Shown piece after piece: positions 8,601-50,579 of a stretch of 64,000 bases of DNA. The position numbers and the translations under genes are program-made. This stretch comes from Candidatus Uhrbacteria bacterium (lineage in GTDB: Bacteria > Patescibacteriota > Patescibacteriia > JACRJV01), in assembly GCA_016215325.1 (NCBI GenBank), contig JACRJV010000007.1, positions 3,728-67,727 of the forward strand, written 5' to 3'. The stretch's first letter is position 1. The number at the start of each line of letters is the position of its first letter. The notes under the pieces were generated by a model. The model saw only the letters and a list, made by a program, of their open reading frames with translations. It did not search any database and was not told the origin of the DNA.

Positions 8601-11600
8601 AACAATTTCAACTGCGGTGTTGGTATCTTCGTCCAGATCAAATGTTAATGTATTCGTGCCATCGGAAAAAGAAAGCTCGGTGTCTGTAGAATTGACGATT
8701 GTCTCGCCATTTCCCAGAGTGAGCGTACCGTCCAATCGTGTGGTCCCCGCATCCACCCACAAGGCATAGGCATTGGTGATGGTGGCAGGCCCAGCGCCCG
8801 CGCCCGTAGGCGCATTGGCAATATAGAGTGATGCCGCATTGGTTACCGTAAGAGTAGAGGCAGCGGAGAGTGTCGATTGAGCAATATTCAGAAGATTAAA
8901 CCCCGTGGCAGTCGTGATATTTGTAGAGCCAGTGATGGTGGCGGTTGCCGCAGAAAGATCGATGCCGTTCCAAGTGGCGCTGGCGCCTGAGGCAATAGTT
9001 TCGTTACCAGAAATCGCAGGATTTGTGATGGTGGCAGTATTGATCGCAGGACTAGTTAATGTTTTGTTTGTAAGAGTATCAGTAGTCGCTCGACCGACAT
9101 AGGTGTCCGTTCCTTGGAAGGTGATTGTTGTGGAATCCGTACCAGCGAGAGTCAAAGAGTTACTCGCCGTCAGCGTCTTACCATCGGCGATCGTGAGTGT
9201 GCCAGTGGATGCTGTTACTGTAAGTCCGTTGATTGTCTTATTCGTCAGCGCCTCTGCACCCGCAAGAGTGGCGAGCGTACCGGTCGTTGGAAGAGTAACG
9301 TTTGTTGCTCCGGTTGTTGTGAGTGTAAGAGAGTTCGCCCCAGAGGTAATGAGTGCTCCGGCAGTGGTGAGGTTCCCAGCCAAGTTAATCGTGCGAGCCG
9401 CATCGTTGGTGGTGATTGTCAGTATTCGGCCAGCTGTAAGATTCTCAGTGTTGGCAAGAGTGAGATCAAACGCGCCGGTGCCGGTGGAACGAATGCCTAA
9501 GGACGTGAGTGCGTCAGCAGTGCCGCCGTTGATATCTGGACTGGTCAGCGTTTTGTTCGTCAATGTATCGGTCGTGGCACGGCCAACTAGCGTATCAGTT
9601 CCGGTGGGAATCGTGATGGTGCCGCTATTAGAGATGGAGGCGATCACTGGGGTTGTGAGGGTTTTGTTGGTGAGCGTATCGGTTGTCGCGCGGCCGACAT
9701 ACGTGTCTGTTCCCTGAAATGTGATGGTTGTCGCATCTGTTCCTGCCAATGTGAGTGAATTGCTCGCGGTTAAGGTCTTCCCATCCGCGATCGTCAACGT
9801 GGCCGAAGTGGTCGGCGCGGTAATGGCGACCTTATTAATGGATGTTGCAGAAGCAACGCCTAAAGTCGGAGTAACGAGGGTCGGAGACGTCGAAAAGACG
9901 AGATTCGTGCTCGTGGTTCCTGTTGTTCCGCCCGCAGAGGAAAGATAGTTCAACTGTGTTCCCGTCGACGTAACCGATGTTGCTCCAAGTGTAAACGGTG
10001 TGGGAATGGTGACCGTGCCGGTGAAGGTGGGGCTTTCTAAAAATGCAAATGTTTTCCGTGCTGCGCCGGTCGTGATGGTGCCGTAATACGCATCGGTCAA
10101 GAATTCCACGGCCCCGGCTTCGGCAGTGGTCATCAGTGACCCAGAGTTAAACTTGAGCGGCGCTGTGGAAGCGCTGGTGGTGCCAGCTTTGAGGTGAAGG
10201 ACAGCAGTGGGGGTTGTGACCCCGATGCCGACATTTCCATCAAAACGCACAGCCCCATCATCCACCCATAACGCATAGGCATTGGTGATGGTGGCTGGCC
10301 CAGCGCCTCCGCCCGTGGGGGCATTGGCAATATATGCTGTTGCGGCATTCGTCACAGTTAATGCTGAAGCTGCCGAGAGTGTTGGTTGGGCAATATTCAA
10401 CAGATTAAACCCAGCGGCTGTCGTGATGTTGGTGGAGCCGGTGATGGTGGCTGTGGCCGCAGAAAGATCGATCCCGTTCCAGGTGGCACTCGCACCAGAG
10501 GCGATCGTTTCGTTGCCAGAGATCGCGGGGTTGGTAATGGTAGCGGTATTAATCGCAGGACTGGTCAATGTCTTGTTCGTGAGCGTATCCGTGGTGGCTC
10601 GACCGACAAGCGTATCTGTTCCGGTGGGGATCGTGATAGTACCGGAGTTGGAAATGGAAGCGATCACGGGAGTTGTGAGTGTTTTGTTGGTGAGCGTATC
10701 CGTCGTCGCCCGGCCAACATACGTGTCTGTTCCTTGAAAGGTGATTGTTGTCGCATCTGTTCCTGCCAATGTGAGTGAATTACTCGCAGTCAACGTTTTC
10801 CCATCGGCGATCGTGAGGGTGGCCGATGTTGCCGGCGCGGTAATCGCCACCTTGTTGATTGAGGTTGCGGATGCAACGCCTAGTACGGGGGTAACAAGCG
10901 TCGGGGTTGTGGCAAATACCAGCGCTCCAGAACCGGTTTCATCGGTGAGTTGTCCTGAAATGCCCGAAGATGCGGTAGTAGCGGTCACGGCACTCGTGCC
11001 ATTGCCGATTAAGATGCCTGAGAGCGTCCCCGCTCCAGTACCTCCTTGAGCAACCGCTAATGCAGTGGTTAATCCCGAAATCGACGTGATGTCCGAATTT
11101 GCTCCCGATGCGGCGGCGCCTAAATTTGCTCGCGCATTCGCGGCGGTTGTTGCGCCAGTGCCGCCGTTAGCCACTGCAATCGTCGTCCCATTCCAGGTCC
11201 CGGCCGTGATCGTCCCAACCGTCGCAATGTCGGTACCCACCAGTTTTGAAGCCGCAATCGAGCCCGTGAGCATGCCATTCGTGACCGATCCGGTATCACC
11301 AGTGGTGACAATAGTACCACTGACATTGGGAATGCTCAGCGTTCGGGTTGCCCCCGCGCTTACACCGGAGATTTGGAATGCGAGTTGCTTGGTTGTGTCG
11401 CTATCGTCTTGGATAACGAAGTTTGTATCTTTCAACGTCGCTGCGTTCGTATTATCAATCGTCTTGTTGGTGAATGTTTCACTACCGGCAAGGGTCGCAA
11501 TAGTGCCGGTGGTCGGCAAGGTGAGGGTCGTCGCCCCCGTTGTTGCGAGCGTTAGGGCATTCGCTCCGGATGTCGTGAATGCCCCCGCAAGCGTGAGATT

Positions 11601-14196: not shown

Positions 14197-14269
14197 AAGT
14201 ATTGAGCAAGATAAGCATTACGTCGTAGCTTAATTTACTTATTTTACTTATCTCGCTTATCTTGCTCGC
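14195..14269. repeat. Copy A of a ~40-bp palindromic element (AGCTTAATTTACTTATTTTACTTATCTCGCTTATCTTGCT) with a truncated inverted partner
   Basis: The full unit is at 14227..14269. The partial inverted arm ATAAGTATTGAGCAAGATAAGC is at 14195..14216. The element abuts the fdx start codon. Related copies are at 35871..35947 and 39981..40074. Confidence 0.7.
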
Positions 14270-14273
14270 TGCC

Positions 14274-15293: not shown

Positions 15294-15368
15294 TGGTGCG
15301 CGTGCCTGGGATCGAACCAGGGACCTTCTCATTATCAGTGAGACGCTCCACCACTGAGCTACACGCGC
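15294..15368 (-). tRNA. tRNA-Ile (anticodon GAT), with CCA encoded
   Basis: The sequence is GCGCGTG-TA-GCTC-AGTGGTG-GAGC-G-TCTCA-CTGATAA-TGAGA-AGGTC-CCTGG-TTCGATC-CCAGG-CACGCGC-A-CCA. The arms form a clean cloverleaf. Confidence 0.9.
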
Positions 15369-16504: not shown

Positions 16505-17239
16505 ATTACGATCACAACAATCTTATGATTGTTGTGTCACTGATCACCACTGGGCAAACGGCTTTCCCGTACCCTAGCGGTTCCCAAATATCGTTATTGT
16601 TTTCTTCCCGTTCCTCCGCGCCATCTCGCGCAACGCCAGAATTTTTGAATATCCGGTGTCGCTCAGATGTTCTTTCTTCGCGATGATTTCCACCACGCGT
16701 CGAAAGATGTTGAAGGATTGCTGTTTTTTCGACTGAAGAGGGTGTTGTGCCTTCTCCGTCAACAAAACCCACAACATAGTGTGGCGGTAACGGTCGGAAA
16801 TGATAATTTGGTTTCACTCCTTCCCCAGAAAAACTTCTGAGTACTATGAGATCTGCTGACTTCTTGTACTTCATAAGAATGCTTGTTTCCAAACACTCCG
16901 CCATCACCTCGTGATTAATTCATCACGATGTAGTATACCACAATTTGATGATGGAAGGTACAAGATCTCCCTGGGTCACGAACAAGAATAATTGTCTCTA
17001 TCGGGATCCTAATCACATACAGCATTTTGTGTTCGAATAATTTCCCCCTGTACGCGCGGGGTCATCCAAACTGTATGCCACCATTGATTCACGCTAAAGA
17101 CTGCGTCCGAACTCTCGTCAGAGCCCTCGCGGGCACTGGCGTGTTCTTTGCTTCAAGTCTTTCGAACGAGACTTGGTCGGATTTCCTGCCTGCCGACAGG
17201 CAGGTCACCAACATTCGTTGTCCGCTACCAGGCGGTCCG
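16505..17239 (-). mobile_element. Intron/IVS inside the 16S rRNA gene, inserted between the GUACAC and ACCGCCCGUC segments near E. coli position ~1397
   Basis: The boundaries are unambiguous by alignment to the universal 16S sequence. The intron begins GGACCGCCUGG and ends ...CGUAAU, so it shows neither the group I terminal G nor the group II GUGYG. Its class cannot be determined by eye. Confidence 0.8.
16512..16907 (-). pseudogene. Degenerate LAGLIDADG homing-endonuclease ORF inside the 16S intron, probably frameshifted
   Basis: The 131-aa ORF contains ...HYVVGFVDGEG, a LAGLIDADG motif, but then turns low-complexity. An overlapping ORF in a second frame (16574..16777) carries the endonuclease-like continuation ...SFNIFRRVVEIIAKKEHLSDTGYSKILALRE... 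Confidence 0.5.
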
Positions 17240-17550
17240 TGTACAAAACCCGAGAACGTATTCACCGCGGCGAGGCTGATCCGCGATTACTAGCGATTCC
17301 TGCTTCATGAGGGCGAGTTGCAGCCCTCAATCTGAACTGGGGGGTGATTTGATGGGATTAGCTCCAGCTTGCGCTTTGGCGGCCCATTGTAGCACCCCAT
17401 TGTAGCACGTGTGTCGCCCAGGACGTAAGAGCCATGCTGATTTGACGTCATCCCCACCTTCCTCCCCCTTGAGGGGGGCAGTCTCGCCAGACACTTGTAA
17501 CTGGCAATAGGGGTTGCGCTCGTTTCCAGACTTAACTGTACACCTTACGG

Positions 17551-17583
<33 letters not shown>

Positions 17584-17695
17584 TGCACCCTCGAAGGTCA
17601 CACGTTTCCGTGCGCTTGCAGCATCATGTCAAGCCCTGGTAAGGTTCCTCGCTTATTGTCGAATTGAACCACATGCTCCACCGCTTGTGCGGGTT

Positions 17696-17744
<49 letters not shown>

Positions 17745-19037
17745 GATACTTAAGGGGTTACCTTTGATAAACGACACTGGGAGGGTCGATACTCCCAATG
17801 TCTAGTATCCATCGTTTACGGCGTGGATTACGCGGGTATCTAATCCGCTTCACTCCCCACGCTTTCGTCTCTCAGCGTCAGATCCGTCCTAGTATGCTGC
17901 TTTCGCCTTTGGTGTTCCTGCCGATATTAACGCATTTTACTACTACACCGACAGTTCCGCATACCTCTTCCGGCCTCAATCCTGACCATCTCTCCCGCAG
18001 CGCCGAAGTTAAGCTTCAGCATTTAACAGAAGATGCATCAGGACGCCTACAGACGCTTTACGCCCAATAAATCCGGATAACGCTTGAACCACTCGTATTA
18101 CCGCGGCTGCTGGCACGAGTTTAGCAGGTCCTTATTCCCACCATACCGTCAGAAATCGGGGATCGGATATCGGAAATCGAAACGGAGGAATCCGACTTCT
18201 GATCTCTGAACCCCGACCTCTTCTTCTGGTGGAAAAGCAGTTTACACTCCGAAGAGCTTCATCCTGCACGCGGCGTCGCTCCCTCAGACTTTCGTCCATT
18301 GGGGAAGATTCTTGACTGCAGCCTCCCGTAGGAGTCGGGCCAGTATTTCAGTGCCCGTGAGGCGGGTCGTGCTCTCACACCCGCTACCCGTCGTCGCCTT
18401 GGTGGGCTTTTACCCCGCCAACTAGCTGATAGGCCATAGGCCCCTCTCCGAGCGGATTGCTCCGTTACTCCAAAACTCTTGCGAGAATGGAGACCATTGG
18501 GAATTAGCGTCTCTTTCGAAACGTTATGCCCATCTCGAAGGTAGGTTACCAATGTGTTACTCACCCGTTTGCCACTCTGCGCGCTCCGCGCTGAAATATC
18601 GATATATCGAAATATCGAAATGTCAGTGCGAAGCACGCAGCGTTCGACTTGCATGCCTTAGACACGCCGCCAGCGTTCATCCTGAACCAGGATCAAATTC
18701 TCAAGAAGATTGAATGTTGATTGCTCAACGGTTCAATATACTGTTCCTAAGAACAGATTTGGTTGCTTAGTTATTTTGTTGAATTGACGTATTGCTATCA
18801 CGTTTCTTGTTTCAACCTTACATTGTTGTCTACCCAATTTTCAATGTACGATCCCTTGAGAGAGAAAAAAATACACCCGCCCATGTGCTTCCAGCGCATC
18901 CGTAAATCCACACATAGACTGGCTGTAGAATGTTTCCGTATTGTTGGCCGTTTGGGCCATCCCCAAGGGGCAACGGGTAGTATGACGGAAACAAAAGCCG
19001 GTGTCAAGAGCAAGTCTGAGATGCAAATACATCTCCG

Positions 19038-19316
19038 TTACCGATACAATTGACTATGCGTTCCGAGAAATAAAAATACGAATGCATCGTCGCTTAATAC
19101 TTTGTAGATCGCTCTCCAATCTCCAGTGACGTCGATACTACGATATCCCAAATACATTCCTTGGAGCGCGTGATTACTCAGACGTGAATCAAACGGGTCG
19201 CGTTGGAACGAACCAAGGCGCTCATACAACGCTGCTTGAATCTTTGTTGGGGCTGTTTGAAGCTGCTTCTTAAATCGAGTATGGAAGTGAATCGTCATAA
19301 CTACAGCCGGAATCAC
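19038..19316 (-). CDS. relE: Type II toxin of the RelE/ParE (YafQ-like) family
   Basis: The sequence ...ALQGMYLGYRSIDVTGDWRAIYKV... matches the family signature. There is a 4-nt overlap with the upstream antitoxin gene. Confidence 0.75.
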   Translation of the reverse strand: MIPAVVMTIHFHTRFKKQLQTAPTKIQAALYERLGSFQRDPFDSRLSNHALQGMYLGYRSIDVTGDWRAIYKVLSDDAFVFLFLGTHSQLYR

Positions 19317-25611: not shown

Positions 25612-26016
25612 TTAGTTTTTGAGTGACGAGTTGCGAGTGACGAGTTTTTGTCGCTTTTGCTCTTCAAGATATGAAATGAGTGCGCCCACTCTCTTGGCTA
25701 AGAGTTCCAACGTATTATTGGTGCCATCAAACTCGGATTGAGAAATATGCCCCACTGAAAGGGCAATGTGCAGTTGATTGCGGACCTCACCAATTGAACC
25801 TCTGGCACTCCTTAAGAAACGGCAAAACTCATTATTATTTCTTTTCTCAAACCCTTCAACAATGTTAGAACTGATGGAAATTACCGCTCGCCGTATTTGG
25901 TCTCGCAATCCGAAATCTTTAGAAAATTTTTCTTTTGCTGATAAATCATAGATAACTTTGGTGTTTTCTAAGCTCATTTGCCATATCTCTAAATCTTCGA
26001 ATCGCGTAATATTCAT
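25612..26016 (-). CDS. Four-helix-bundle protein (TIGR02436 / '23S rRNA intervening-sequence protein' family)
   Basis: The sequence ...KFSKDFGLRDQIRRAVISISSNIVEGFEKR...FLRSARGSIGEVRNQL... is characteristic of this family. Confidence 0.75.
   Translation of the reverse strand: MNITRFEDLEIWQMSLENTKVIYDLSAKEKFSKDFGLRDQIRRAVISISSNIVEGFEKRNNNEFCRFLRSARGSIGEVRNQLHIALSVGHISQSEFDGTNNTLELLAKRVGALISYLEEQKRQKLVTRNSSLKN
25613..25650. repeat. Left inverted-repeat arm flanking the four-helix-bundle gene (GAGTGACGAGTTGCGAGTGACGAGTTTTTGTCGC)
   Basis: It is about 80% complementary to the arm at 26020..26062. It belongs to the same family as the trmD insert. Confidence 0.65.
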
Positions 26017-28565: not shown

Positions 28566-28799
28566 TTAAAGTAGCTCCAAAAATTCTTCGATCGAAATCC
28601 CCATATCGTCAATGATGCTCCTGAGCAATGGTTTTTTAATCGTTCGGCCTCCATGCATTGGAATAACTGTTCTTCGGTGACGGGATGGATGAATATAAAC
28701 TGCATGGCTTCCACTTTGTCGATCAAACAAAAAACCAGCGCGTTCCAATGCTCGAGTCACTTCTCGAGCATTGAGTGCCGGCAACTGGGATAACCCCAT
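28566..28799 (-). CDS. hicA: HicA-family toxin, an mRNA interferase. The ORF is open to 28916.
   Basis: The sequence ...LNAREVTRALERAGFLFDRQSGSHAVYIHPSRHRRTVIPMHGGRTIKKPLLRSII... matches the family signature. Confidence 0.75.
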   Translation of the reverse strand: MGLSQLPALNAREVTRALERAGFLFDRQSGSHAVYIHPSRHRRTVIPMHGGRTIKKPLLRSIIDDMGISIEEFLELL

Positions 28800-28803
28800 A
28801 GTG

Positions 28804-29034
28804 TTATGCCGCGAACTCAACCTCCACCGTCCCCTGAAACACTTTTTGCTCTTGCGGCACTGGCTCATGATGCGCTTGGAGACTCTCAATGTACAGCGCG
28901 ATAGCATCTTTAACATTTGCCTCGGCTTCTTCTAGTGTTTCCCCTTGTGTATGACAACCCGGCAATGTGGGCACAAAAGCCGTAACACCTCCTTCAAGAT
29001 CGTACTGATAGATAACCGAATATCGATAACTCAT
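28804..29034 (-). CDS. hicB: HicB-family antitoxin
   Basis: The sequence ...TAFVPTLPGCHTQGETLEEAEANVKDAIALYIESL... matches HicB and the gene sits upstream of hicA. Confidence 0.7.
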   Translation of the reverse strand: MSYRYSVIYQYDLEGGVTAFVPTLPGCHTQGETLEEAEANVKDAIALYIESLQAHHEPVPQEQKVFQGTVEVEFAA

Positions 29035-35859: not shown

Positions 35860-35870
35860 ACGAGCACGAT

Positions 35871-35947
35871 AAGTGAATTAAGCAAGATAAGCCCGGCCGT
35901 CGCCACAGCTTAATTTACTTATTTTACTTATCTCGCTTATCTTGCTT
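35871..35947. repeat. Copy B of the 40-bp palindromic element
   Basis: AAGTGAATTAAGCAAGATAAGC, a 14-nt spacer, then AGCTTAATTTACTTATTTTACTTATCTCGCTTATCTTGCTT. It lies 12 nt upstream of the rpiB ATG. Confidence 0.7.
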
Positions 35948-36563
35948 AACCAGATCCATTTTTCCGTCTATACTTCTGCGCGTCCTTTATTTCCACCTTT
36001 TCTTTTTTGATCATCTCAATCACTTTGGCCACCAACCGTTTCGGGTTACTATCATAAACAACCTTCCCGTTGCCCTTGTGAGCACGCTCAACAATATCCT
36101 TGATCATGTCTGCCATGCCACCAGTCCCCGTAAGGATCCCTTGCGGCTTGTTGTCTTCAAACGCAATCGTAAATTCGTTGAGCGTTCCGATCCGACCGCA
36201 CACAGTGATCACCGCATCCGATGCTCTGGTTAAAATGAGGTTACGGCCCGAGTAATCAAAACCAGTGTAAATGATCATGTCAAAGTAATCCGTCGGGAGC
36301 CGGTAGCTTTTGACATGCGCTAATTCTGTTGCCGCTGGCGAGATGCCAATAGAAATTCCACCTTCCTGCTTGGCTCCTATTGCTGCCCAATACGGCGCGC
36401 CGGTCGTGGCCCCGCTCACGAGGATCCCGCCTTGGCGCACAATTTCCCGTCCCACCTCGACGGTTTTTTCATAGGCACCGGGGGCCGCTGAAGTAGTGTC
36501 CGCAGAACCGGAAACGCAAATTTTGTATTTGAGATAGGATTGAGGGATCGAATCTTGACTCAT
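35946..36563 (-). CDS. TIGR00725/LOG-like Rossmann-fold nucleotide-binding protein
   Basis: The sequence ...ICVSGSADTT...GGILVSGATTGAPYWAAIGAKQEGGISIGISP... matches the family. Confidence 0.5.
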   Translation of the reverse strand: MSQDSIPQSYLKYKICVSGSADTTSAAPGAYEKTVEVGREIVRQGGILVSGATTGAPYWAAIGAKQEGGISIGISPAATELAHVKSYRLPTDYFDMIIYTGFDYSGRNLILTRASDAVITVCGRIGTLNEFTIAFEDNKPQGILTGTGGMADMIKDIVERAHKGNGKVVYDSNPKRLVAKVIEMIKKEKVEIKDAQKYRRKNGSG

Positions 36564-38107: not shown

Positions 38108-39067
38108 TTATCCGCGGACAATCAACACAGTGATGTAGAGGACATACGCCGTCAAAAACCCCGTTCCCTGCCATCGTTCAATGATATGACGCTTCCCCAC
38201 AAACAGAAAAATAAATAGCAGAAGGGTAGCGAGCACGGCAACGCCGATGTCCATATTACTGCGCGATTGGAATGGCAATGGCCGTATGATGCTGCTCATT
38301 CCTAAAATCCAAAAGATGTTAAAAATGTTGGAACCAACGACGTTGCCGACCGCAATATCGACGTTCCTCTTATACGCCGCCACAGCCGAAGTAGCGAGCT
38401 CCGGTAACGAAGTACCGACCGCAACTACCGTCAGCCCAATCAACGACTCGCTGACCCCAAGATTCGAGGCAATCTCTACCGCAGAATCCACCACCCATTT
38501 CCCGCCGACCACAAGGACCATCAATCCCCCTGCCACCATTGAAACGGATCGGAGCAATCCGAAGCGGCGCACTGGAAGCCCTTGCTCTGATGGTGGCCCG
38601 CCAAACGCCAACTCGTACGTGTAGAACAAAAAGATCGCGAAAAATCCGATTAGAGCGATACCATCCGTGCGCGTAAGCGCAGAAAATTCTAGGCCGTCAA
38701 TCCACTGATCATTGGCCATCACCGCAATCATCAACACCGCCAAAAGACTAAAGGGGATTTCCTTCCAGACCGTCCCTTTCGTAACCCGCAGTGGATAGAT
38801 CACCGCGGCAATGCCCAAAATGAGGAGGATGTTGGCAATGTTCGAACCTAGAATATTGCCAATGGCGATTTCGGTGTTCCCGGAAATGCTCGCGACGGTG
38901 TTAACAATGAGCTCCGGTGCTGATGTGCCAAACGCAACAATCGTGAGACCAACAGCTAAGTCGGAAATGCCAAACCGTTTGGCAATGGAAGATGCTCCAT
39001 CAACGAGCCAACCCGCTCCTTTGATAAGCAATGCAAACCCTACGACGAGAAAAAAGAGAGTTGTCAT
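38108..39067 (-). CDS. CaCA-family cation/Ca2+ antiporter (YrbG-like)
   Basis: Two alpha-repeats are present: ...GTSAPELIVNTVA...GNILGSNIANILLILG... and ...GTSLPELATSAVA...GNVVGSNIFNIFWILG... Confidence 0.8.
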   Translation of the reverse strand: MTTLFFLVVGFALLIKGAGWLVDGASSIAKRFGISDLAVGLTIVAFGTSAPELIVNTVASISGNTEIAIGNILGSNIANILLILGIAAVIYPLRVTKGTVWKEIPFSLLAVLMIAVMANDQWIDGLEFSALTRTDGIALIGFFAIFLFYTYELAFGGPPSEQGLPVRRFGLLRSVSMVAGGLMVLVVGGKWVVDSAVEIASNLGVSESLIGLTVVAVGTSLPELATSAVAAYKRNVDIAVGNVVGSNIFNIFWILGMSSIIRPLPFQSRSNMDIGVAVLATLLLFIFLFVGKRHIIERWQGTGFLTAYVLYITVLIVRG

Positions 39068-39972
39068 ATTGATGGCTTACGAAATTTTTTGAGGACCACA
39101 ATATCCCGAGGTCGCTTCTCTTCTGTCGGTGTTTCTAAAATTAAATCGCAATGCTGGAGTTTTTTGTTTTTGACGATCGCTTCAAAAGCCGGTAGACCGA
39201 TATAACCATCACCTAAGTCCGCGTGGCGGTCCACGTGGGAGCCGAATTCCACCTTGGAGTCGTTGCAATGGAAGACGACCAGGCGATCAAGGCCGATGTT
39301 CTTCTCAAACTCATCAAACACTTTTTTCTGGGTTTCTTTTGTGCGCATATCGTAGCCCGACGCAAAGGCGTGTTGGATGTCGAAGCACACGCCCAGACGA
39401 GGGTTTAGGGTAGAGGGTTTAGGGTTCAGTTTCTTTGATGTCCCCGCCTCCACGCCGGTGATGATTGCGGCAATTTCGTCGAAGGTGTCGCCCATTATCA
39501 ATCCTGCTCCGGCGGAGATTTCTAACAACAGTTGGCAGGACCCCGTATAGCCGTCCAAAATGTTCTTCACCCCTTCGATCACCATTTGCATTCCTCGCTG
39601 TTGCGCCGCTTCGGCAGAAAGCCCACTTTTGAGGAGATCGTTGGCGCTGCCAAGATGCGTCATGAGTGCTTTAACGCCGAGTACACTCCCGCGTTCTAGT
39701 TCTTCACGGACCACGGCGATGGTTCCGTACCGCGTCCGATTATTGCTCGAAGCAAAATTTACATAGTAGGGCGCATGGATGTACGCCGCCTTCTGGCGGT
39801 GTTGTTCCATCGCTTCGCGAAACAGCCGAATCGCCTCGTCGTCGAGTGTGCGAGCCGGCCCGCCTTGCGGAGGCCGCGAGAAAAACTGAAACGCTTCTCC
39901 GCCAATCTTGGCGGAATTTTCTGGAGCATTGTGCAAGCCCCCGGCAGCGGAGATGTGAGCGCCGAAGAACAT
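39064..39972 (-). CDS. nfo: Endonuclease IV (Nfo) with an in-frame repeat insertion
   Basis: The sequences FGAHISAAGGL, LLEISAGAG, GVCFDIQHAFASGYD, FHCNDSKVEFGSHVDRHADLGDGYIG and LILETP match E. coli Nfo. Confidence 0.85.
   Translation of the reverse strand: MFFGAHISAAGGLHNAPENSAKIGGEAFQFFSRPPQGGPARTLDDEAIRLFREAMEQHRQKAAYIHAPYYVNFASSNNRTRYGTIAVVREELERGSVLGVKALMTHLGSANDLLKSGLSAEAAQQRGMQMVIEGVKNILDGYTGSCQLLLEISAGAGLIMGDTFDEIAAIITGVEAGTSKKLNPKPSTLNPRLGVCFDIQHAFASGYDMRTKETQKKVFDEFEKNIGLDRLVVFHCNDSKVEFGSHVDRHADLGDGYIGLPAFEAIVKNKKLQHCDLILETPTEEKRPRDIVVLKKFRKPSI
39401..39429. repeat. GGGTTTAGGGTAGAGGGTTTAGGGTTCAG heptamer repeat inserted in-frame in nfo
   Basis: The repeat is translated as ...SKKLNPKPSTLNPRL... 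and replaces the short DKSRV loop of E. coli Nfo. It shares KKLNP...NPR with the trmD C-terminal insert. Confidence 0.65.
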
Positions 39973-39980
39973 ATTTGCGG

Positions 39981-40074
39981 AGCAAGATAAGCGAGAAAAG
40001 TAAGATAAGTAAATTAAGCTTGCTGGCGATCGGGCTTATCTTGCTTATGTTACTTATCTTGCTTATCTCGCTCG
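39981..40074. repeat. Copy C of the 40-bp element, present as a complete inverted pair
   Basis: AGCAAGATAAGCGAGAAAAGTAAGATAAGTAAATTAAGCT, a 13-nt spacer, then GCTTATCTTGCTTATGTTACTTATCTTGCTTATCTCGCTCG. It lies 8 nt upstream of the nfo ATG. Confidence 0.75.
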
Positions 40075-44035: not shown

Positions 44036-45349
44036 TTAAGAGGCTTCTTCTGGAGTTTCGGTCTTGGTGGCTTCTGCTTCTCCGGTTTTCGGGGTTGATG
44101 CTTCTTCAATATTCGTGGTATTCGCCCCTGCCTGATCGGTAGGCAGGTCGCTGTTGGCGGTGTTCATGTTCTCTTGCGAATTTTCGTTTTTACGGATATC
44201 CACATTCCAGCCGGTAAGTTTTGATGCGAGGCGGACGTTTTGGCCGTTGCGGCCGATGGCTAACGAAAGTTGATCCTCCGGCACCTGGACCGTCGCTGTC
44301 TTGGATTCTTCATGGAGTTGGATGTCCGCTACCTTTGCCGGTGACAATGCGGCCTGGAGATACGCAACAGGGTCTTCTTTCCATTCGATAATATCGATTT
44401 TCTCGCCCTTGAGCTCTGCAATGATTGCTTGTACACGCGCGCCGCGCTGCCCCACGCAAGAGCCCACCGGATCGATGTTGCTTTCCAACGATCGCACCGC
44501 GACCTTCACGCGCGACCCGGCCTCGCGGGCAATACCCATAATTTCGATATGCTGGTGTTGGATCTCGGGGATTTCAACGGTAAACAGGTACCGAACAAGT
44601 TCCGGAGAGGTCCGGCTCACAACCACCTCGGGCCCGCGCGCTTTGAGCTCCACCGATTCGACATACACTTTTACGCGGTCGCCGATATGGTATTGCTCGT
44701 GCGGTGCCTGCCCCTCGGGTACCATGATCCCAACGATGCGCCCGAAATCTACCAGCACTAAACGTCCCTCGCGTCGTTGGATCAACCCGGTGACAACAGT
44801 ATGTTCTTTGTCTTTAAAGTCTTGATAGAGGACGTTGCGTTCTGCTTCGCGCAACTTTTGCATAATCACCTGCTTGGCCGTTTGCGCAGCCATACGACCA
44901 AAGCTCGAAGGCACCTCAAGTTCAGTGCGGATTTCATCGCCGAGTTGGGCATCCGACTTGACCGCTTGCGCCTCTTCGAGCGTGAGGTTCAGACGCGGAT
45001 GGAACCGTGGCTTCTCTTCAATAAGTTCTGTCGTTGCATCAGAACCCCCTTCCAAAACCGTACCAGAAGGCGCGCTCATCACGCCGACATCGTTCGGGCT
45101 CGATTTACTTAATTCACTCTCTGCCATCTCTTCCTCCGGCGGCTTTTCCATAACGGTCTTTACATCGAACACGCGCATTTCACCAGTCTCGGGATGGAAC
45201 TCCACCTTAATGTTTTGATTCGGCTGACCGTAATCTTTACGGTACGCCGCGGCAAGGGCCGCTTCCAGCGTCTGCAGCACCACTTCTTTTGAAATCTTTT
45301 TTTCCTCGCAGACGGTATCAATCGCCTGCAGTAATGGATTGAGGGCCAT
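44036..45349 (-). CDS. nusA: Transcription termination/antitermination factor NusA. The ORF is open to 45403.
   Basis: An S1 domain and two KH domains are present (...DPVGSCVGQRGARVQAIIAELKGEKIDII... and ...AIGRNGQNVRLASKLTGWNVDI...). There is a ~40-aa acidic insertion near the N-terminus and an acidic C-terminal tail. Confidence 0.85.
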   Translation of the reverse strand: MALNPLLQAIDTVCEEKKISKEVVLQTLEAALAAAYRKDYGQPNQNIKVEFHPETGEMRVFDVKTVMEKPPEEEMAESELSKSSPNDVGVMSAPSGTVLEGGSDATTELIEEKPRFHPRLNLTLEEAQAVKSDAQLGDEIRTELEVPSSFGRMAAQTAKQVIMQKLREAERNVLYQDFKDKEHTVVTGLIQRREGRLVLVDFGRIVGIMVPEGQAPHEQYHIGDRVKVYVESVELKARGPEVVVSRTSPELVRYLFTVEIPEIQHQHIEIMGIAREAGSRVKVAVRSLESNIDPVGSCVGQRGARVQAIIAELKGEKIDIIEWKEDPVAYLQAALSPAKVADIQLHEESKTATVQVPEDQLSLAIGRNGQNVRLASKLTGWNVDIRKNENSQENMNTANSDLPTDQAGANTTNIEEASTPKTGEAEATKTETPEEAS

Positions 45350-45453
45350 AAGTATGTCATGTACTTTTATCAAACAAAAAAGACAGATTCTTATGGAATC
45401 CATCTATCATAATCCAAGACTAGCAAACCTCAGATTCTCTGTCAACCACAAAT

Positions 45454-45810
45454 TTATACAGCGTTCGGGATGTGTTCTATGTGGGACTCTCCGCTGGGCT
45501 CCACCAATATGGCGATCACGTCTATGCGGACCGTGCGATATTGCGGATGGACATTCCAGTACCATTGCGCGAGCTGACGGAGTTTGTGTTGCTTATGGGC
45601 GGTCACGGCTTCTTCGGGGTACCCATAGTGAGTGGAATTGCGAGTCTTCACTTCAACGATGACTAACTCTGATTCAAGCGCACAAACAACATCGATCTCC
45701 CCGAAGGGAGATCGAATATTGCTGCCCAAAATGGTGTACCCCTTTGTTTCTAAATATCCGCGTGCAACGCCTTCGCCCCAATCGCCGCGCTTCTGACGCG
45801 CATTACGCAT
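45454..45810 (-). CDS. yraN: YraN/UPF0102-family putative endonuclease. The ORF is open to 45825.
   Basis: The sequence ...GEGVARGYLETKGYTILGSNIRSPFGEIDVVCALESELVIVEVKTR... matches the family. Confidence 0.7.
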   Translation of the reverse strand: MRNARQKRGDWGEGVARGYLETKGYTILGSNIRSPFGEIDVVCALESELVIVEVKTRNSTHYGYPEEAVTAHKQHKLRQLAQWYWNVHPQYRTVRIDVIAILVEPSGESHIEHIPNAV

Positions 45811-45829
45811 AAAACATAATGCCAATTTA

Positions 45830-45897
45830 CAAATTCATTCGAATACTACGAATACCAAATTTGCTGTATTGGCATTCATTCGCATATTCGCATTATG
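45830..45897 (-). promoter_or_regulatory. Second copy of the trmD-type leader/promoter element
   Basis: On the minus strand it reads CATAATGCGAATATGCGAATGAATGCCAATACAGCAAATTTGGTATTCGTAGTATTCGAATGAATTTGTAAATTGGCATTATG... It directly abuts the yraN start. Confidence 0.5.
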
Positions 45898-46284
45898 CTA
45901 TCTGCCGGGTATGTACTTCAGCTGCTGGAGCCGGCGGTACTCATCCTTCTCTTTTGCACCCCAATGTTTATACCGTCCCCAAAGGGTGTATGCGCGCCAT
46001 ACCACAAGAAGTGCCAACAACACGTACCATGCGCGTGCGCCAAGGACGACAACGCGCTGCCCCGAAAGCCACGTGAGCAACAGTCCGGCAACACCGACAG
46101 AAAATGCATTCATGCGCACTTCGCTTGCCCATTCCATCATCCACCGGCTGCTGCGGCGTTTGACGATCGGGGGGAGGAACAAGCCGATCGCAACCAACAG
46201 GACAGCGACCGCCATGGCGGTACGGATGACCGGGGACTCCGTCGCGGGTTGAATAAAGTTAAGCCACTGGAGGAGTGTAGACAT
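45898..46284 (-). CDS. Small membrane protein, hypothetical
   Basis: There are three hydrophobic helices. Confidence 0.4.
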   Translation of the reverse strand: MSTLLQWLNFIQPATESPVIRTAMAVAVLLVAIGLFLPPIVKRRSSRWMMEWASEVRMNAFSVGVAGLLLTWLSGQRVVVLGARAWYVLLALLVVWRAYTLWGRYKHWGAKEKDEYRRLQQLKYIPGR

Positions 46285-46290
46285 AGAATG

Positions 46291-46902
46291 TTATTGTCTG
46301 CTAAACAACGCGCCAAAATGCCAAACGCTGGCCGAAAATTCACTTTCAAAATGCAGCCCAATGGTTGAAGCCACGGCCTTTAATTGTTCGAGGTTCACGC
46401 GGCGAGCGAGGGGCGGACCCACCGGCCCGGTTTCTTGCCTCCAGTCCACAACCAATAATTTCCCACTGACCTTGAGCAACCGCTGTGCTTCTTTAAAAAT
46501 ATGATCGTGGTGAATGTTCTGAAAAAGGATATTGACACACAACACGCGATCAATCGACTCTTCCGGGATCGCAGCGGCCCCAATCACTTCGAGATTGGAA
46601 TGGATCACTTGGATCTGGGGGAGATTTTCGACTCGAGCGCGTCGGCGGAGGCTTTCGAGCACGTCAGGGACAACGTCTACGGCATACACCATTCCACCCC
46701 GACCGACACGGCGAGCGAGCGGAAAGGTAAAATGGCCGCCACCGCCGCATCCAAACTCGCCAATATGCTGGTCTACTTCAACATCGAGCTGGGCAAGGAT
46801 AAATTCGGGGTCAAGCAGGCGCGTTCCGCCGGCGGTCTCGTACAAGGCGCTGAGCATAGGGAGTAATGGGAGTTGGTAATCAGTAGTAATAGCGCGACGC
46901 AT
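46291..46902 (-). CDS. Class I SAM-dependent methyltransferase
   Basis: The sequence ...VGEFGCGGGGHFTFPLAR...VYAVDV... carries motif I. Confidence 0.65.
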   Translation of the reverse strand: MRRAITTDYQLPLLPMLSALYETAGGTRLLDPEFILAQLDVEVDQHIGEFGCGGGGHFTFPLARRVGRGGMVYAVDVVPDVLESLRRRARVENLPQIQVIHSNLEVIGAAAIPEESIDRVLCVNILFQNIHHDHIFKEAQRLLKVSGKLLVVDWRQETGPVGPPLARRVNLEQLKAVASTIGLHFESEFSASVWHFGALFSRQ

Positions 46903-46924
46903 CGTTATACCTACTCACTACAAC

Positions 46925-47590
46925 CTACTCACTAGTATACAACTTCCGGATGGGTTCGAACAACCTCCGATGATGCACAGAAGGTCCATATTCTTCCAAT
47001 TTCTGCTGATGCAGCTGTGTACCATACCCCTTGTGCAGATCAAATCGATACCGGCTTTCTTGTTCGTGCAGCTCCAGCATCATTTGGTCGCGCGCCACCT
47101 TGGCAATGATGGAAGCGGCGGCGATGGAGTAGATCTTCTGATCGCCGTCGATAACGGAAAACCACTCGGGGTGAGTTTTGATTGGGAGACCGTCAATCAT
47201 TACTGTCATTCTGGCTTGCCGGCCCCGTCTTGGCGGTGGGCCAGAATCCGGCGATCGATCGGATCTTGCCGGCCCCGTCTTGGCGGTGGGCCGTGGCCAG
47301 GATGACGACACAGTGAGGGCCGCAATTGCCCGCTCAAATACCATTGCCTGTGCTTTCGTCATGCCGAACAAATCGAGTTCTTCCACGCTCACGATCCCGA
47401 TACCGTGCTGATGCATCTTTCGGAGGGTTCCACTGAGTTCTTCCCGCTGTCTTGGCGACAGCAATTTTGAATCCCGTACACCCTTCACTCGGAACTCCTC
47501 ACGCGTCACTTGCAAGGCACATGCGACAAAGGGGCCGGCCCAGGCGCCCCGGCCGACTTCGTCGATGCCGATGCCGGGGGAAAATCGCAT
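46925..47590 (-). CDS. rnhB: Ribonuclease HII with an in-frame GC-rich tandem-repeat insertion
   Basis: The sequences GIDEVGRGAWAGPFVACAL, ...DSKLLSPRQRE... and ...DGDQKIYSIAAASIIAKVARDQ... identify RNase HII. There is a ~35-aa P/R/S-rich insert, SSSWPRPTAKTGPARSDRSPDSGPPPRRGRQARMTV. Confidence 0.85.
   Translation of the reverse strand: MRFSPGIGIDEVGRGAWAGPFVACALQVTREEFRVKGVRDSKLLSPRQREELSGTLRKMHQHGIGIVSVEELDLFGMTKAQAMVFERAIAALTVSSSWPRPTAKTGPARSDRSPDSGPPPRRGRQARMTVMIDGLPIKTHPEWFSVIDGDQKIYSIAAASIIAKVARDQMMLELHEQESRYRFDLHKGYGTQLHQQKLEEYGPSVHHRRLFEPIRKLYTSE
47209..47291. repeat. Two copies of CTTGCCGGCCCCGTCTTGGCGGTGGGCC (at 47214..47241 and 47264..47291) inside rnhB
   Basis: The first copy is bracketed by ATTCTGGC and GCCAGAAT inverted flanks. 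The repeat is translated in-frame. Confidence 0.7.
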
Positions 47591-47593
47591 AGT

Positions 47594-49114
47594 CTACGCT
47601 TCCTCTCTGATCGCTTGCTGGAGCCGCGCGATGTTCTTGAGTTTCCATTCCTTCTTTCGCTTGCGCATCGCTCGCTCTTCCTCTCCCTTCTCCGGCGTTA
47701 CCGTCGCTGGTACAGCATCGACAGTAAATTTGTTCGACCAATATTGCTGCTCGTCATCTAACAGCACGCTGTGCTCCTCGACAAATTGTTGGCAGTACTG
47801 CCGGGCGAACAACCCCTCTGCCTTACGGTTCAGCTTTTCTTTTGTCGCCTGCGCGTACTCTTTCGCTTGCGATAATAAATAGACATATGCTGCAGGGATC
47901 TCTTTTCGACCAGCAGGGGTTGAATAATCGCCATTATTAATCGTGTTGATGGCATTCTTGATTTCGGCCGCATGGGGGTGATCGTTGAGCTGCCGGCTCT
48001 CAATATTCGAAGTATACAGTCGAAACCACTCGCGATAGGCCTCCGCTTCCGCCAACGCCTCCTTGCCAAAGTGTTCCCGCGTGACCGCGTGCGGGGCCTT
48101 GAAGAAATTATTTGCGCTCGTCTCAAAACATGTTTGCACTGCCGCCTGCAGACGCGTCCATCCGCGATCATTCATTGTCTCGGTATCTTCGTCAACAATA
48201 CTGGGATTGTTGACGTGCTGCTCCAAATACTTTGAGTAACTGCCGGTGCCCACTCCCACAATCATGTCAGCGGCATGGAACATATTATCTTCTATGCTTT
48301 TTTGGTTCTGGAGCTCTGCTCGACTTCGGACAAACAGCGTGCCAAATACATTATACACGTCATAGTTCTTCCGACGCTCTACAAACCTCCCCTTGATCAG
48401 AGCAAACTCATCGGGGAACTCATCGTCAGAATGGGTGAGGATCCCCTTGCCCACAGAGAGGGCCTCGACGGTGGGAGAGGCGGGGTAAAATTCCCGAAGC
48501 GCCCGGACCGCCTCCAAGGCGCTGTGGGCGTTATGCCCCCAAAGATCAGGGTTGTTCTTTGGAATGTTCTTTTCTTTCTTTGCTGGATCATCACTCAACA
48601 CGATTTCCACGGCGCCCGTGCTCTGGTTCTTTTTCATCATGGGGCAAAGTTTTCCGCAGTCATGCAGGAGCGCCCTGCGTTGAACGCCCTTAAGGTCGAC
48701 AGGCGATGTTTCCATCTTCGCTGCCGCTGTGACAATCTGATACACATCATCCAGGTGCTGCCGTTGTTCCTGCTTGGCAACCTCCGACGCATCCGCCTGG
48801 TTCATGCGCGCCACAGAGATTGCGATGAGCAGGTCATGCTCATATTCGCTGACACCTTCTTTTGAACGCCCCTCCTCCGGATTCTCGGGGGCTTCGGCGA
48901 TTTCATCGAGTGTTACAAGATATGCTTCTTGGTCCAGCGAAAGTTCAAGATACGAACCGGTGAGTGTAAGGTCTTCAACGAATTCGTTTGCTGTGGCGGC
49001 AATCTCTGCGTCACGCCGACGGCGCGCATCGTCCAAAGAAATCGGCGGTCCCATAGGCGCAACGCCTGTTTTTGAGGTTAACTCTTCCTCTGGCAAACGG
49101 TCCGGTTGTCCCAT
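47594..49114 (-). CDS. HD-domain-containing protein. The ORF is open to 49303, which would overlap proS.
   Basis: The sequence ...RALLHDCGKLCP... is HD-like. The likely start is MGQPDRLPEE at 49114. Confidence 0.4.
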   Translation of the reverse strand: MGQPDRLPEEELTSKTGVAPMGPPISLDDARRRRDAEIAATANEFVEDLTLTGSYLELSLDQEAYLVTLDEIAEAPENPEEGRSKEGVSEYEHDLLIAISVARMNQADASEVAKQEQRQHLDDVYQIVTAAAKMETSPVDLKGVQRRALLHDCGKLCPMMKKNQSTGAVEIVLSDDPAKKEKNIPKNNPDLWGHNAHSALEAVRALREFYPASPTVEALSVGKGILTHSDDEFPDEFALIKGRFVERRKNYDVYNVFGTLFVRSRAELQNQKSIEDNMFHAADMIVGVGTGSYSKYLEQHVNNPSIVDEDTETMNDRGWTRLQAAVQTCFETSANNFFKAPHAVTREHFGKEALAEAEAYREWFRLYTSNIESRQLNDHPHAAEIKNAINTINNGDYSTPAGRKEIPAAYVYLLSQAKEYAQATKEKLNRKAEGLFARQYCQQFVEEHSVLLDDEQQYWSNKFTVDAVPATVTPEKGEEERAMRKRKKEWKLKNIARLQQAIREEA

Positions 49115-49130
49115 AGATACGTTATGACTA

Positions 49131-50579
49131 TTAGTACGCAACAGCGAATGTCCATCGCTTTTCTGCTTTCTGCCCGCAGTGGATGCATCCCCCTTGTTCA
49201 GGGAGTGCATCATTCTGTAAACATCGTGTTGTCGCTTTTGTTTTTTCTTTAATGTGCGCTTCGCATTGCGCTCGCTCACACCATCGGGCTCGAACAAACC
49301 CACGCCCCCCTTCCATCATCGTAACGAATTCTTCCCAATTATCCGCTGTATGCGTGTTGTCTTGCAAAAATCTTTCTGCTTGCCCAAAAAGGGATGCCTG
49401 GACCTCATCGAGGAGTTTCAAAATGGCAACAGCAAGATCGTCAACGGCGATAGTATTCTTAGCCCCCGTATCCCGTCGGGCATACATAACATTTTTTCCT
49501 TCTCTTTCTCTTTTCCCAATCTCAAGTCGTACCGGCACCCCCTTCAACTCCCATTTATTAATCTTAAATCCCATGGTCTCGCTGTCCCGATCATCCAGCT
49601 TGGTTCTGACCCCGGCCTTCTGCAGCGTCGCAACCACCTCGCGCGCATAGTCGAGTAGCTCTGGCTCCGGTCGCACCGGAATCACCACCACTTGGATCGG
49701 CGCGAGTCTCGGGGGCAATCGGAGCCCCTGATCATCACCATGAGCCATAATGAGCCCGCCGATCGAACGCGTCGAAAGCCCCCAGCTCGTTTGCCACACA
49801 AATTCCGCCTGTCCGTCTTTGTTCTGAAAATTGATGTTGAACGGCTTGGAAAAATTCTGGCCAAGATCATGGCTGGTGCAACTTTGCAACGCCTTGCCTT
49901 CTGGCATCAAGGTTTCGTAGGTAAGGGTCATGTCAGCGCCGGCAAATTTTTCGCTTTCAGACTTACGGCCGATGTAACCAGGCAGTGCAAAAAGTTCGCG
50001 ATAAATTTTTTGATACATATTCATGGCCCAGTGCACGGTCTCGAGCGCTTCTTCGTGCGTAGCGTGCGCGGTATGCCCTTCTTGCCACAAAAATTCCGTG
50101 GTGCGCAAAAACAGGTACGTGCGCTTTTCCCACCGCACCACGTTGTTCCATTGGTTAATCAACATCGGCAGATCCCGCCAAGAATGTACCCACCGGCTGT
50201 ACGCATCGTACATGATGGTTTCGCTGGTGGGCCGTACCACGAGTTTTTCCTTGAGCTCCTCCCCGCCGCCAATGGTAACCACGGCGAGTTCGGGCGAAAA
50301 TCCTTCTACGTGCTCTTGTTCTTTGTGCAAGAGTCCTTCGGGAATGAACATCGGGAAATACGCATTCTCCACGCCGCGATCTTTTATCATGGCATCCATT
50401 TCCTTTTGCACCAACTCCCAGATAGCATAGCCATAGGGTCGAAAAATCATCGTGCCTTTCGCTGGGCCGTAATCCGCCAGCTCCGACGAGAGCACTATCT
50501 TGTTGTACCATTCCGAAAGGCTGTCAGATTTCTTCGGGAGGTCTTTTTTTTCGTAGGCCATATAAAATCTTTTACACAT
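49131..50579 (-). CDS. proS: Prolyl-tRNA synthetase (archaeal/eukaryotic-like class II)
   Basis: The sequence ...FRPYGYAIWE...VVRPTSETIMYDAYSRWVHSWRDLP...RTTEFLWQEGHTAH... matches the enzyme. Confidence 0.85.
   Translation of the reverse strand: MCKRFYMAYEKKDLPKKSDSLSEWYNKIVLSSELADYGPAKGTMIFRPYGYAIWELVQKEMDAMIKDRGVENAYFPMFIPEGLLHKEQEHVEGFSPELAVVTIGGGEELKEKLVVRPTSETIMYDAYSRWVHSWRDLPMLINQWNNVVRWEKRTYLFLRTTEFLWQEGHTAHATHEEALETVHWAMNMYQKIYRELFALPGYIGRKSESEKFAGADMTLTYETLMPEGKALQSCTSHDLGQNFSKPFNINFQNKDGQAEFVWQTSWGLSTRSIGGLIMAHGDDQGLRLPPRLAPIQVVVIPVRPEPELLDYAREVVATLQKAGVRTKLDDRDSETMGFKINKWELKGVPVRLEIGKREREGKNVMYARRDTGAKNTIAVDDLAVAILKLLDEVQASLFGQAERFLQDNTHTADNWEEFVTMMEGGRGFVRARWCERAQCEAHIKEKTKATTRCLQNDALPEQGGCIHCGQKAEKRWTFAVAY

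Follow-up and report, generated by a model that had tools for sequence, protein, structure and literature searches.

Introduction

The CGTC-tagged superfamily of repetitive extragenic palindromes (REPs), with the families CGTC-1 to CGTC-4, was described in 2013 (Di Nocera, De Gregorio & Rocco 2013, BMC Genomics 14:522; PMC3733652), and in this report we describe an insert that probably belongs to this class, located in frame within the RNase HII gene (rnhB) of a Candidatus Uhrbacteria bacterium. The stretch of DNA analysed, hereafter the window, comprises 64,000 nt of contig JACRJV010000007.1 (assembly GCA_016215325.1, positions 3,728 to 67,727 of the forward strand). As defined in PMC3733652, a CGTC REP carries an unpaired terminal CGTC or TGTC tag (a CCTC variant is allowed), a stem of 8-9 bp that almost always starts with a complementary AT, a loop of 4-5 nt and an unpaired 3-nt tail with the consensus CCA. 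The units, which number tens to thousands per genome, mostly form head-head dimers with the tags outside, around a short and structured spacer. Loop length varies in some CGTC families, and loops of up to 27 bp were reported in one GTAG family. In-frame intragenic CGTC dimers encode 20-43 amino acids, and many of them lie in genes of DNA replication and repair, including polA, dnaE2, uvrA/B and recB. CGTC-1 is the Neisseria dRS3 element, and CGTC-1 and CGTC-4 are the Rickettsia palindromic elements (RPEs) RPE-6 and RPE-4, respectively (PMC3733652).

A further description of such hairpins came from work on the small GIY-YIG nuclease SsnA, which binds and cuts the NTS, CGTCATTCCCGCGMAVGCGGGAATCYRG, as single-stranded DNA (Nat Commun 2025; PMC11893778). 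Cleavage requires the GTC upstream of the palindrome, and binding depends critically on the C right after it. [quoted passage not shown]

Results

A putative head-head dimer of CGTC-tagged hairpins in rnhB

The 221-residue open reading frame (ORF) at 46925-47590 matched PF01351 in Pfam (E=1.5e-32), and its product was 100% identical to the NCBI protein 'ribonuclease HII [Candidatus Uhrbacteria bacterium]'. It contains a palindromic core of 102 nt, or 34 codons (47205-47306), with the ends GTCAT...ATGAC; on the coding strand the insert is bounded by GTCATCCTGGC...GCCAGAATGAC. The length of the insert is a multiple of three, no stop codon interrupts it, and its GC content is 68.6%, compared with 53.9% in the remainder of rnhB. 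A preliminary description of the window had reported a GC-rich, in-frame repeat insertion in this housekeeping gene, the third such gene in the window and of a family different from that in the other two. These points were confirmed: the element is unrelated to the AT-rich repeats found elsewhere in the window, and the loop peptide quoted in that description, SSSWPRPTAKTGPARSDRSPDSGPPPRRGRQARMTV, was correct on translation. The two ends of the core form an outer terminal inverted repeat of 11 nt with 10/11 matching positions (GTCATTCTGGC, 47205-47215; GCCAGGATGAC, 47296-47306), which had escaped the preliminary description. This was the sole outer palindrome of its type in the 64-kb window, and 0/20 shuffles produced one. 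Folded as a single strand, as RNA, the element formed one long hairpin (-49.3 kcal/mol, z=-2.4).

As shown in Table 1, the insert resolves into two inverted units, each of which would begin with a (C/T)GTC tag, followed by an 8-9-bp stem with AT at its start, a loop, a second arm with AT at its end, and a CC(G/A) tail. Relatives are referred to below by locus handles, L001 being the closest. The two tags are outermost in the block and the two CCG tails face each other over a central spacer, as in the head-head dimers of the published class. The same tags bound the inserts of L001, L004, L005, L008 and L009, and homologous spacers were found in L001 (CCGATCGGCGTCCGG) and L009 (CCGATTCATCGG). 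The tails are CCA in a unit at L003:2-32, and CTT and CTC in L004. In the plus-strand unit, the AT-starting stem is complete (8/8 pairs), and its arms ATTCTGGC and GCCAGAAT, an inverted repeat of 8 nt without mismatch, flank the first copy of a 28-nt repeat, CTTGCCGGCCCCGTCTTGGCGGTGGGCC (28-mer), which they overlap by 1 and 3 nt. The palindromic flanks that had been noticed around this copy were therefore real. In the minus-strand unit, the left arm ATCCTGGCC is kept and the right arm is reduced to its final AT, being mostly overwritten when compared with the L001 unit (CGTC ATCCTGG CCCCGA CCAGGAT CCG).

Table 1 Coordinates of rnhB, its insert and the proposed parts of the insert in the window
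Feature	Position	Strand	Remarks
rnhB (RNase HII) coding sequence	46925-47590	minus	221 residues; catalytic DEDD residues D10, E11, D133, D150 intact
Translated insert, Pro/Arg/Ser/Gly-rich loop SSWPRPTAKTGPARSDRSPDSGPPPRRGRQARMT	47204-47305	minus	residues 96-129
Complete insert, putative head-head dimer of two CGTC-tagged REP hairpins	47204-47307 (104-nt block)		tags outside
Putative REP unit, plus-strand reading	47204-47250	+	TGTC tag, 8/8 stem pairs, CCG tail
TGTC tag	47204-47207	+	
Left arm ATTCTGGC	47208-47215	+	
Loop	47216-47239	+	24 nt
Right arm GCCAGAAT	47240-47247	+	
Tail CCG	47248-47250	+	
Central spacer GCGATCGAT	47251-47259		9 nt, partly palindromic, between the two tails
Putative REP unit, minus-strand reading	47260-47307	-	compared with the intact orthologous L001 unit
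CGTC tag	47307-47304	-	
Left arm ATCCTGGCC	47303-47295	-	followed by ACG and the 28-mer
Right arm remnant	47264-47263	-	final AT
Tail CCG	47262-47260	-	
28-mer copy A	47215-47242	+	forms the expanded loop of the plus-strand unit
28-mer copy B	47265-47292	+	direct orientation; in the loop/right-arm position of the minus-strand unit

Comparison with described repeat classes

The layout of the NTS and SRM hairpins, namely CGTCAT, palindrome, ATC and YRG, was also recognized in the window, where the plus-strand unit reads TGTCATTCTGGC...GCCAGAATCCGG against the NTS consensus CGTCATTCCCGCGMAVGCGGGAATCYRG. GTC stands directly before the palindrome and C directly after it (GTC, ATTCTGGC...GCCAGAAT, C), and the same was found in all orthologous units. 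At the peptide level, 'PSWPGLSRPS...' of R. palustris dnaE2 and 'RHSELVSGS' of Sulfurovum, both from the supplementary table of PMC3733652, resemble SSSWPRP and RHPELDSGS of the window. The locus differs from the published CGTC REPs in its host, since Patescibacteria (the candidate phyla radiation, CPR) lie outside the five phyla listed there for CGTC repeats, in its host gene, rnhB being absent from the target genes listed there, and in its loops, which carry one 28-mer each in direct orientation.

RPE-4 and RPE-6 of Rickettsia are likewise palindromic, lie in frame in housekeeping genes and are taken as translated loops that spare the protein; the rnhB insert resembles them in its 34 codons without a stop, in a protein fold that is preserved in the model described below and in its position on a loop. 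However, RPEs are abundant at many sites in one genome, whereas here a single site bears different palindrome families across the clade. [quoted passage not shown] REPINs differ in consisting of GTAG-type REPs and being tied to RAYT transposases, and MITEs in their target-site duplications and transposase-derived inverted repeats, none of which was seen here.

We also searched for such modules in other DNA. The opening 25-mer of the L005 insert, GTCATTCTGAGCnnnGCGAAGAATC, was found in 101 IMG/VR contig stretches, either singly or in inverted pairs, indicating that such modules are widespread interspersed repeats. In these loci (L091-L191), which come from viral and metagenomic contigs, it occurs in at most 4 copies per 10 kb, often alone and directly adjoining gene starts or ends, and the variants GTCATTGCGAGC, GTCATCCTGAGC and GTCACCCTGAGC stand alongside it; the 25-mer itself gave no match to the strict SRM pattern. 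The CTGG-type unit, GTCATYCTGGN{4,7}CCAGRATCCG, had no match in IMG/VR. Among the units fetched from relatives, the only one that fits the published SRM pattern was the intergenic L003:2-32 of a sister Uhrbacteria contig, a canonical CGTC/SRM unit, TGTCATCCTCGGGCTTGACCCGAGGATCCAG, with a 9-bp stem, a CTTGA loop and a CCA tail. This unit is located upstream of the ATP-cone gene (487-876), the first one called at that locus, which precedes a ribonucleotide reductase gene. The single match to the SRM pattern in the window, at 10569-10601, was at chance level (0.33 expected).

Three further identities were rejected. A CRISPR array requires at least three regularly spaced repeats outside genes, with unique spacers of about one length; here an intact ORF contains just two copies, separated by a spacer of 22 nt. 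For a known structured RNA, an Rfam E-value search of 46900-47650 gave one chance-level match and none at the gathering score. An intron, an intein or a translational bypass was ruled out by the size, the lack of signatures and the invariable conservation of the frame.

The insert would form a flexible loop of RNase HII

Solved structures of RNase HII align to the window protein in two blocks, query residues 6-97 and 130-220, which correspond to residues 13-101 and 103-193 of the T. maritima enzyme (3O3G). Compared with the latter, query residues 98-129 (~32 residues) are extra, between the helix end ...LSVKPS and the strand VLVDG, and the insert thus occupies the loop before the beta-strand that bears the third catalytic Asp. 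D10, E11, D133 and D150 were invariant in an alignment of 22 RNase HII sequences; among 119 homologues, D10, E11 and D133 were invariant and D150 was at least 90% conserved. An AlphaFold2 model was built with the 119-sequence alignment and reached a mean predicted local distance difference test score (pLDDT) of 91.3 and a predicted template modelling score (pTM) of 0.85. Residues ~96-129 appeared as a coil without secondary structure, between helix 69-95 and strand 130-133, with a pLDDT of ~50-75, compared with >95 elsewhere. In this model, the insert leaves the catalytic core unaffected.

The reading frame was examined by recovering the two halves of rnhB by tblastn, in loci with and without an insert and with an intact ORF not being required. 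Among the matches listed, the two halves were in one frame, with gaps that were multiples of three, in every locus where both were recovered. Because the frame is intact in every relative, the simplest reading is that the insert would be read through to give a disordered loop of ~32 residues.

Palindromic inserts recur at the same site in relatives

The DNA of ten rnhB relatives was compared at the insert site, and this survey covered rnhB only. In the protein, the linker from A88 to the catalytic D133 was measured in 119 RNase HII homologues. It was 12-13 residues long, corresponding to no insert, in 94 of them and 22-50 residues long in 19; in the window protein it has 44 residues. Within the clade it ranged from 16 to 50 residues, with neither peptide sequence nor length conserved. 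Of the 11 closest RNase HII relatives (50-68% identity), 10 had an insert at the same place, as did several more distant lineages of Patescibacteria; more distant Patescibacteria homologues in the 22-sequence alignment were empty there. Here the window protein is unlike each of the 11 closest proteins, in length as well as in sequence. The insertion is thus not peculiar to this genome. The preliminary description had named a loop broadly shared by orthologues as an observation that would speak against it, and on this point the outcome was divided: relatives have an insert at the same place, but the loop sequence itself is not shared.

The closest relative, L001, has the same dimer at the same site, in 60 nt and without the 28-mers. 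Its element, GTCATCCTGGCC CCGA CCAGGAT CCGATCGGCGTCCGG ATTCTGG TCAAG CCAGAATGAC, is made up of two clean hairpins, whose stems have 7 bp and whose loops have 5-6 nt. The same architecture is found in L009 and L004, and the units of all three relatives are canonical, with 7-8-bp stems and 4-6-nt loops. L001, L004, L005, L008 and L009 all have (C)GTCAT...ATGAC(G) palindromes at this site; those of L005 and L008 are longer, with the same ends and other interiors (CTGAGC and TGCGAG types). In L006 the tags are degenerate (CGTT and TGTT). L003 and L007 have an unrelated CCCCTCCCC...GGGGAGG hairpin instead of the CGTC-REP dimer, and therefore a second, unrelated palindrome family uses the same rnhB site. 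These hairpins, at L003:10291-10376 and L007:10267-10298, are of the CCCCTCCCCTT...AAGGGGAGG type and are translated as ...PPLFLKGR... and ...PSLSLKGRPGG.... L195 is almost empty at the site. A metagenome scan for rnhB relatives, in which most of the matches listed were distant homologues, was used as a baseline and as a source of other insert-bearing lineages; among the matches listed, palindromic inserts at the rnhB site were also present in the distant lineages L193, L194, L019/L025 and L030. There was no fixed insertion point, since the ATGAC end and the ATCGACGG (I-D-G) codons are separated by between 7 and 22 nt.

The inserted DNA is conserved and its type appears to turn over

The conserved ends of the inserts are read in three frames among relatives, as SSSWP, as (R/C)HPE or RHSE, and as PVIA. 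Therefore, the DNA and not the peptide is conserved, and the conserved unit is the palindrome itself. The stems vary in a compensatory manner (CTGG/CCAG, CCGG/CCGG, CTGAA/TTCAG, CCGGC/GCCGG), the last three pairs being those of L009 and L004. Between the window and L001, the backbone of the element is ~92% identical in the unambiguously aligned blocks, compared with 63-67% in the flanking 150 nt of coding DNA. Between L001 and L009, the backbone is 80% identical, compared with 57-65% in the flanks.

The type of insert does not follow the relatedness of the proteins, the insert being excluded from the protein identities. L005 and L006 have proteins that are 81% identical and different inserts. 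The proteins of L007, which has a hairpin, and of the almost empty L195 are also 81% identical. The same dimer is shared by L001 and L009, although their proteins are only 59% identical. Judged from these sequence comparisons, insert types out of step with the protein point to constraint at the DNA level together with turnover at one permissive or preferred site. The pattern is not that of a decaying neutral passenger. It fits sequence-specific maintenance, by recognition through a family-specific enzyme or by gene conversion, or repeated acquisition and replacement at one site. A similar same-site case has been reported in Xanthomonas recB, as have REPs nested in pre-existing palindromes (Di Nocera et al., PMC3733652).

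The 28-mers are probably a later expansion of the hairpin loops

The 28-mer is present exactly twice in the window, both times on the plus strand, as had been described. No third copy was found in the 64 kb at up to three mismatches, and a match arose in 0/100 dinucleotide shuffles. With starts 50 nt apart and a 22-nt spacer between them, the copies are not head-to-tail; the term tandem used in the preliminary description was thus inaccurate. The direct repeat grows to ~33-39 nt when the trailing GGCCAG(A/G)AT is counted. The repetition covers only 28 of the 50 nt, which rules out a simple 50-nt tandem duplication. The 28-mer is not a hairpin module of its own either, as its fold was no better than that of shuffles (z=-0.5 and -0.9), and it is not a widespread repeat: its 22-nt core had one exact match in 596 Gb of GTDB representatives, a set that does not include the window genome. 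That match, L010:6221-6242, lies in a coding region of an unrelated deltaproteobacterial metagenome-assembled genome, which reads by eye, and not by domain search, as methyltransferase (PrmA)-like, ...GAGPVLAVDND... (...GSGILGIAAIKLGAGPVLAVDNDP...). The plus strand of the 28-mer also reads LAGPVLAVG. We judged the match to be due to chance.

In the alignment of the window with L001, both 28-mers are absent from the L001 orthologue. A GC-rich segment of ~24 nt falls in the loop of the plus-strand unit, and the original loop residues CAAG are kept after it. The same segment, including CAAG, adjoins the near-identical arm ATCCTGGCC of the other unit, where it replaces the loop and most of the right arm. 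These observations suggest that the hairpin loops expanded later, in this lineage, to give the 28-mers. The defining feature of the insert is accordingly the pair of inverted hairpins, putatively CGTC-tagged REPs, rather than the 28-bp duplication that the preliminary description had put in its place. The 28-mers are direct on the chromosome and the units are inverted, and therefore the copies cannot stem from the pairing of two identical units. As a possible course of events, the ~24-nt segment would first have expanded one hairpin loop in the window lineage; it would then have been copied beside the arm of the other unit (ATYCTGGCC), primed on the shared 8-9 nt, by slippage or gene conversion, overwriting the loop and right arm of the second unit. 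Such steps would turn the 60-nt dimer into 102 nt, a net gain of 42 nt that keeps the frame.

An artefact of assembly or sequencing, or a population variant fixed by the assembler, might produce such a duplication, and repeats and hairpins are classic sources of misassembly. However, a separate Logan assembly of SRR12113407 contains a contig of 5,487 nt that matches window positions 44626-50112 with 100% identity, both 28-mers included, although the same reads possibly underlie both assemblies. Moreover, the repeat is shorter than typical reads, the frame is intact and homologous inserts exist in related genomes. We therefore give this explanation hardly any credence.

Other features of the window

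An AT-rich palindromic repeat of ~75-90 nt is present in three copies (~14204-14270, ~35860-35950 and ~39975-40065), all at gene ends. It is built of AAGATAAG/CTTATCTT octamers with the core ...GAGCAAGATAAG...AGCTTAATTTACTTATTTTACTTATCTCGCTTATCTTGCTC. One copy lies just upstream of an apurinic/apyrimidinic (AP) endonuclease (nfo-like) ORF at 39064-39972(-). At a guess, this repeat may be the 'different family' of the preliminary description and what had been seen at trmD and nfo. The AP_endonuc_2 match of the same ORF spans 270 residues for 234 profile positions, and the N-terminal domain of NusA, 44036-45403(-), was matched in two separate stretches. Both matches hint that other housekeeping proteins of this genome may contain internal insertions as well.

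In Rfam, a group-II-D1D4-1 intron match (57.5 bits) was found at 16817-16900(-), between the 16S rRNA gene, 17225-18708(-), and tRNA-Ile, 15294-15368(-). A 131-residue ORF without a Pfam match adjoins it (16512-16907). The match may represent an intron fragment in the spacer of the rRNA operon. A gene for a 23S rRNA intervening-sequence protein, 25612-26016(-) (PF05635, E=4e-30), is not visibly within a 23S gene, and a homologue is present in the sister contig L007 (4284-4667). The window also contains a giant ORF of 3,228 codons, 2691-12377(-), and genes for type II toxins of the YafQ/ParE-like, 19038-19316(-), and HicA, 28566-28916(-), types.

Discussion

In this study, we found an inverted pair of tagged hairpins in the rnhB gene of a Candidatus Uhrbacteria bacterium. 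Tags, AT-starting stem, tails, dimer orientation and the NTS-like GTC and C around the palindrome make it probable that the insert is a head-head dimer of CGTC-tagged REP hairpins, which would be read through in rnhB and kept as selfish DNA. The element would persist and turn over as selfish DNA recognised by a nuclease, and the protein would merely tolerate it. A plausible candidate for such an enzyme would be a GIY-YIG single-strand nuclease of the Ssn type whose gene lies in another part of the genome.

Several observations weigh against this assignment. The plus-strand unit has a loop of 24 nt, compared with 4-5 nt in the class and 4-6 nt in the orthologues, and the minus-strand unit, unlike members of the class, is without most of its right arm. 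The SRM pattern HGTCWYN(0-2)YYVSBRHN(0-5)WNVSBRGN(0-2)RNCYNB was not matched by any unit at the rnhB site, either in the window or in L001-L009. L003:2-32 aside, neither the 64-kb window nor the flanking DNA of related contigs (~65 kb in sister contigs) contained another convincing CGTC-type unit. No GIY-YIG/Ssn gene was detected in the window by a motif regular expression over ORFs of at least 50 residues and Pfam scans of 20 small ORFs; in the fetched relative loci there was likewise nothing convincing in the way of a GIY-YIG (cd10448-type) gene beside the repeats. The flanks of six orthologous inserts showed no common direct repeat, and thus no target-site duplication. For the inferred translation of the insert, the conservation of the frame is the one line of evidence. 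We also know of no mobilising mechanism established for the CGTC-REP class.

The palindrome might instead be kept for a nucleic-acid role at rnhB and not be simply selfish, for example as an mRNA hairpin that tunes expression or stability, or as a signal for cleavage or recombination of single-stranded DNA. Several points speak for such a role: the backbone has diverged less than the coding DNA around it, substitutions in the stems are compensatory, and the folds are better than those of shuffles (z=-2.4 in the window, -4.4 in L001 and -4.3 in L004). In addition, most of the clade and several further lineages have some palindrome at this one site, and ~130 kb of related contigs showed no further copies. 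However, the palindromes at the site belong to unrelated families (CTGG, CTGAGC, TGCGAG and CCCCTCCCC types), L195 is almost empty, and 94 of the 119 homologues are without an insert, and therefore a conserved local function is not required. The element has no Rfam match, the same modules are widespread in unrelated contexts, and its conservation is equally explicable by recognition through a family-specific nuclease or by recent re-acquisition. A nucleic-acid role of this kind thus appears improbable to us.

Selection might also act on the protein, the insert being a lineage-specific RNase HII loop, for instance for partner binding or localisation, and the palindrome being incidental. The frame is kept in all relatives, and the loop is rich in Pro, Arg and Ser, like many interaction linkers. 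Yet neither the peptide nor the length of the linker is conserved within the clade, the conserved DNA ends are read in three frames, the type of insert does not track the relatedness of the proteins, and AlphaFold shows no structure for the insert. We consider this explanation very improbable, and a CGTC-tagged REP dimer that is read through and tolerated by RNase HII remains our preferred interpretation.

The class itself is known (2013, 2025). The phylum has not been reported for it in PMC3733652 or PMC11893778. What is new here is the host lineage, the host gene, the expanded and duplicated loop, and an apparent hot spot with conservation above background. The described class, that is, CGTC-tagged REPs, NTS/SRM and RPE-4/-6, would thereby be extended to Candidatus Uhrbacteria (Patescibacteria/CPR) and to rnhB, and the reported tendency of intragenic REPs to lie in DNA replication and repair genes would gain a further example. 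For annotation, odd Pro/Arg/Ser-rich loops, with peptides like ...ARMT or ...SSSWP..., would be explained as translated repeat DNA.

The same few codons of rnhB bear different palindrome families in related genomes. Turnover at the site and conservation of the inserted DNA bear on the open question of how CGTC REPs spread and on Ssn-type nucleases as possible drivers. A bolder proposal, which we put forward tentatively and regard as rather unlikely, is that the loop before the third catalytic Asp of RNase HII is a preferred landing pad for CGTC-REP dimers and other palindromes across Patescibacteria, with subfamilies replacing one another and the resident dimer (~92% identity, compared with ~65% in the gene) being held nearly constant, either by a cognate single-strand nuclease or through a nucleic-acid-level role in the expression of rnhB. 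If true, rnhB would provide a natural system for the choice of target by tag-bearing REPs, whose mobilising enzyme is still unproven, and it might explain the clustering of intragenic REPs in genes of DNA replication and repair.

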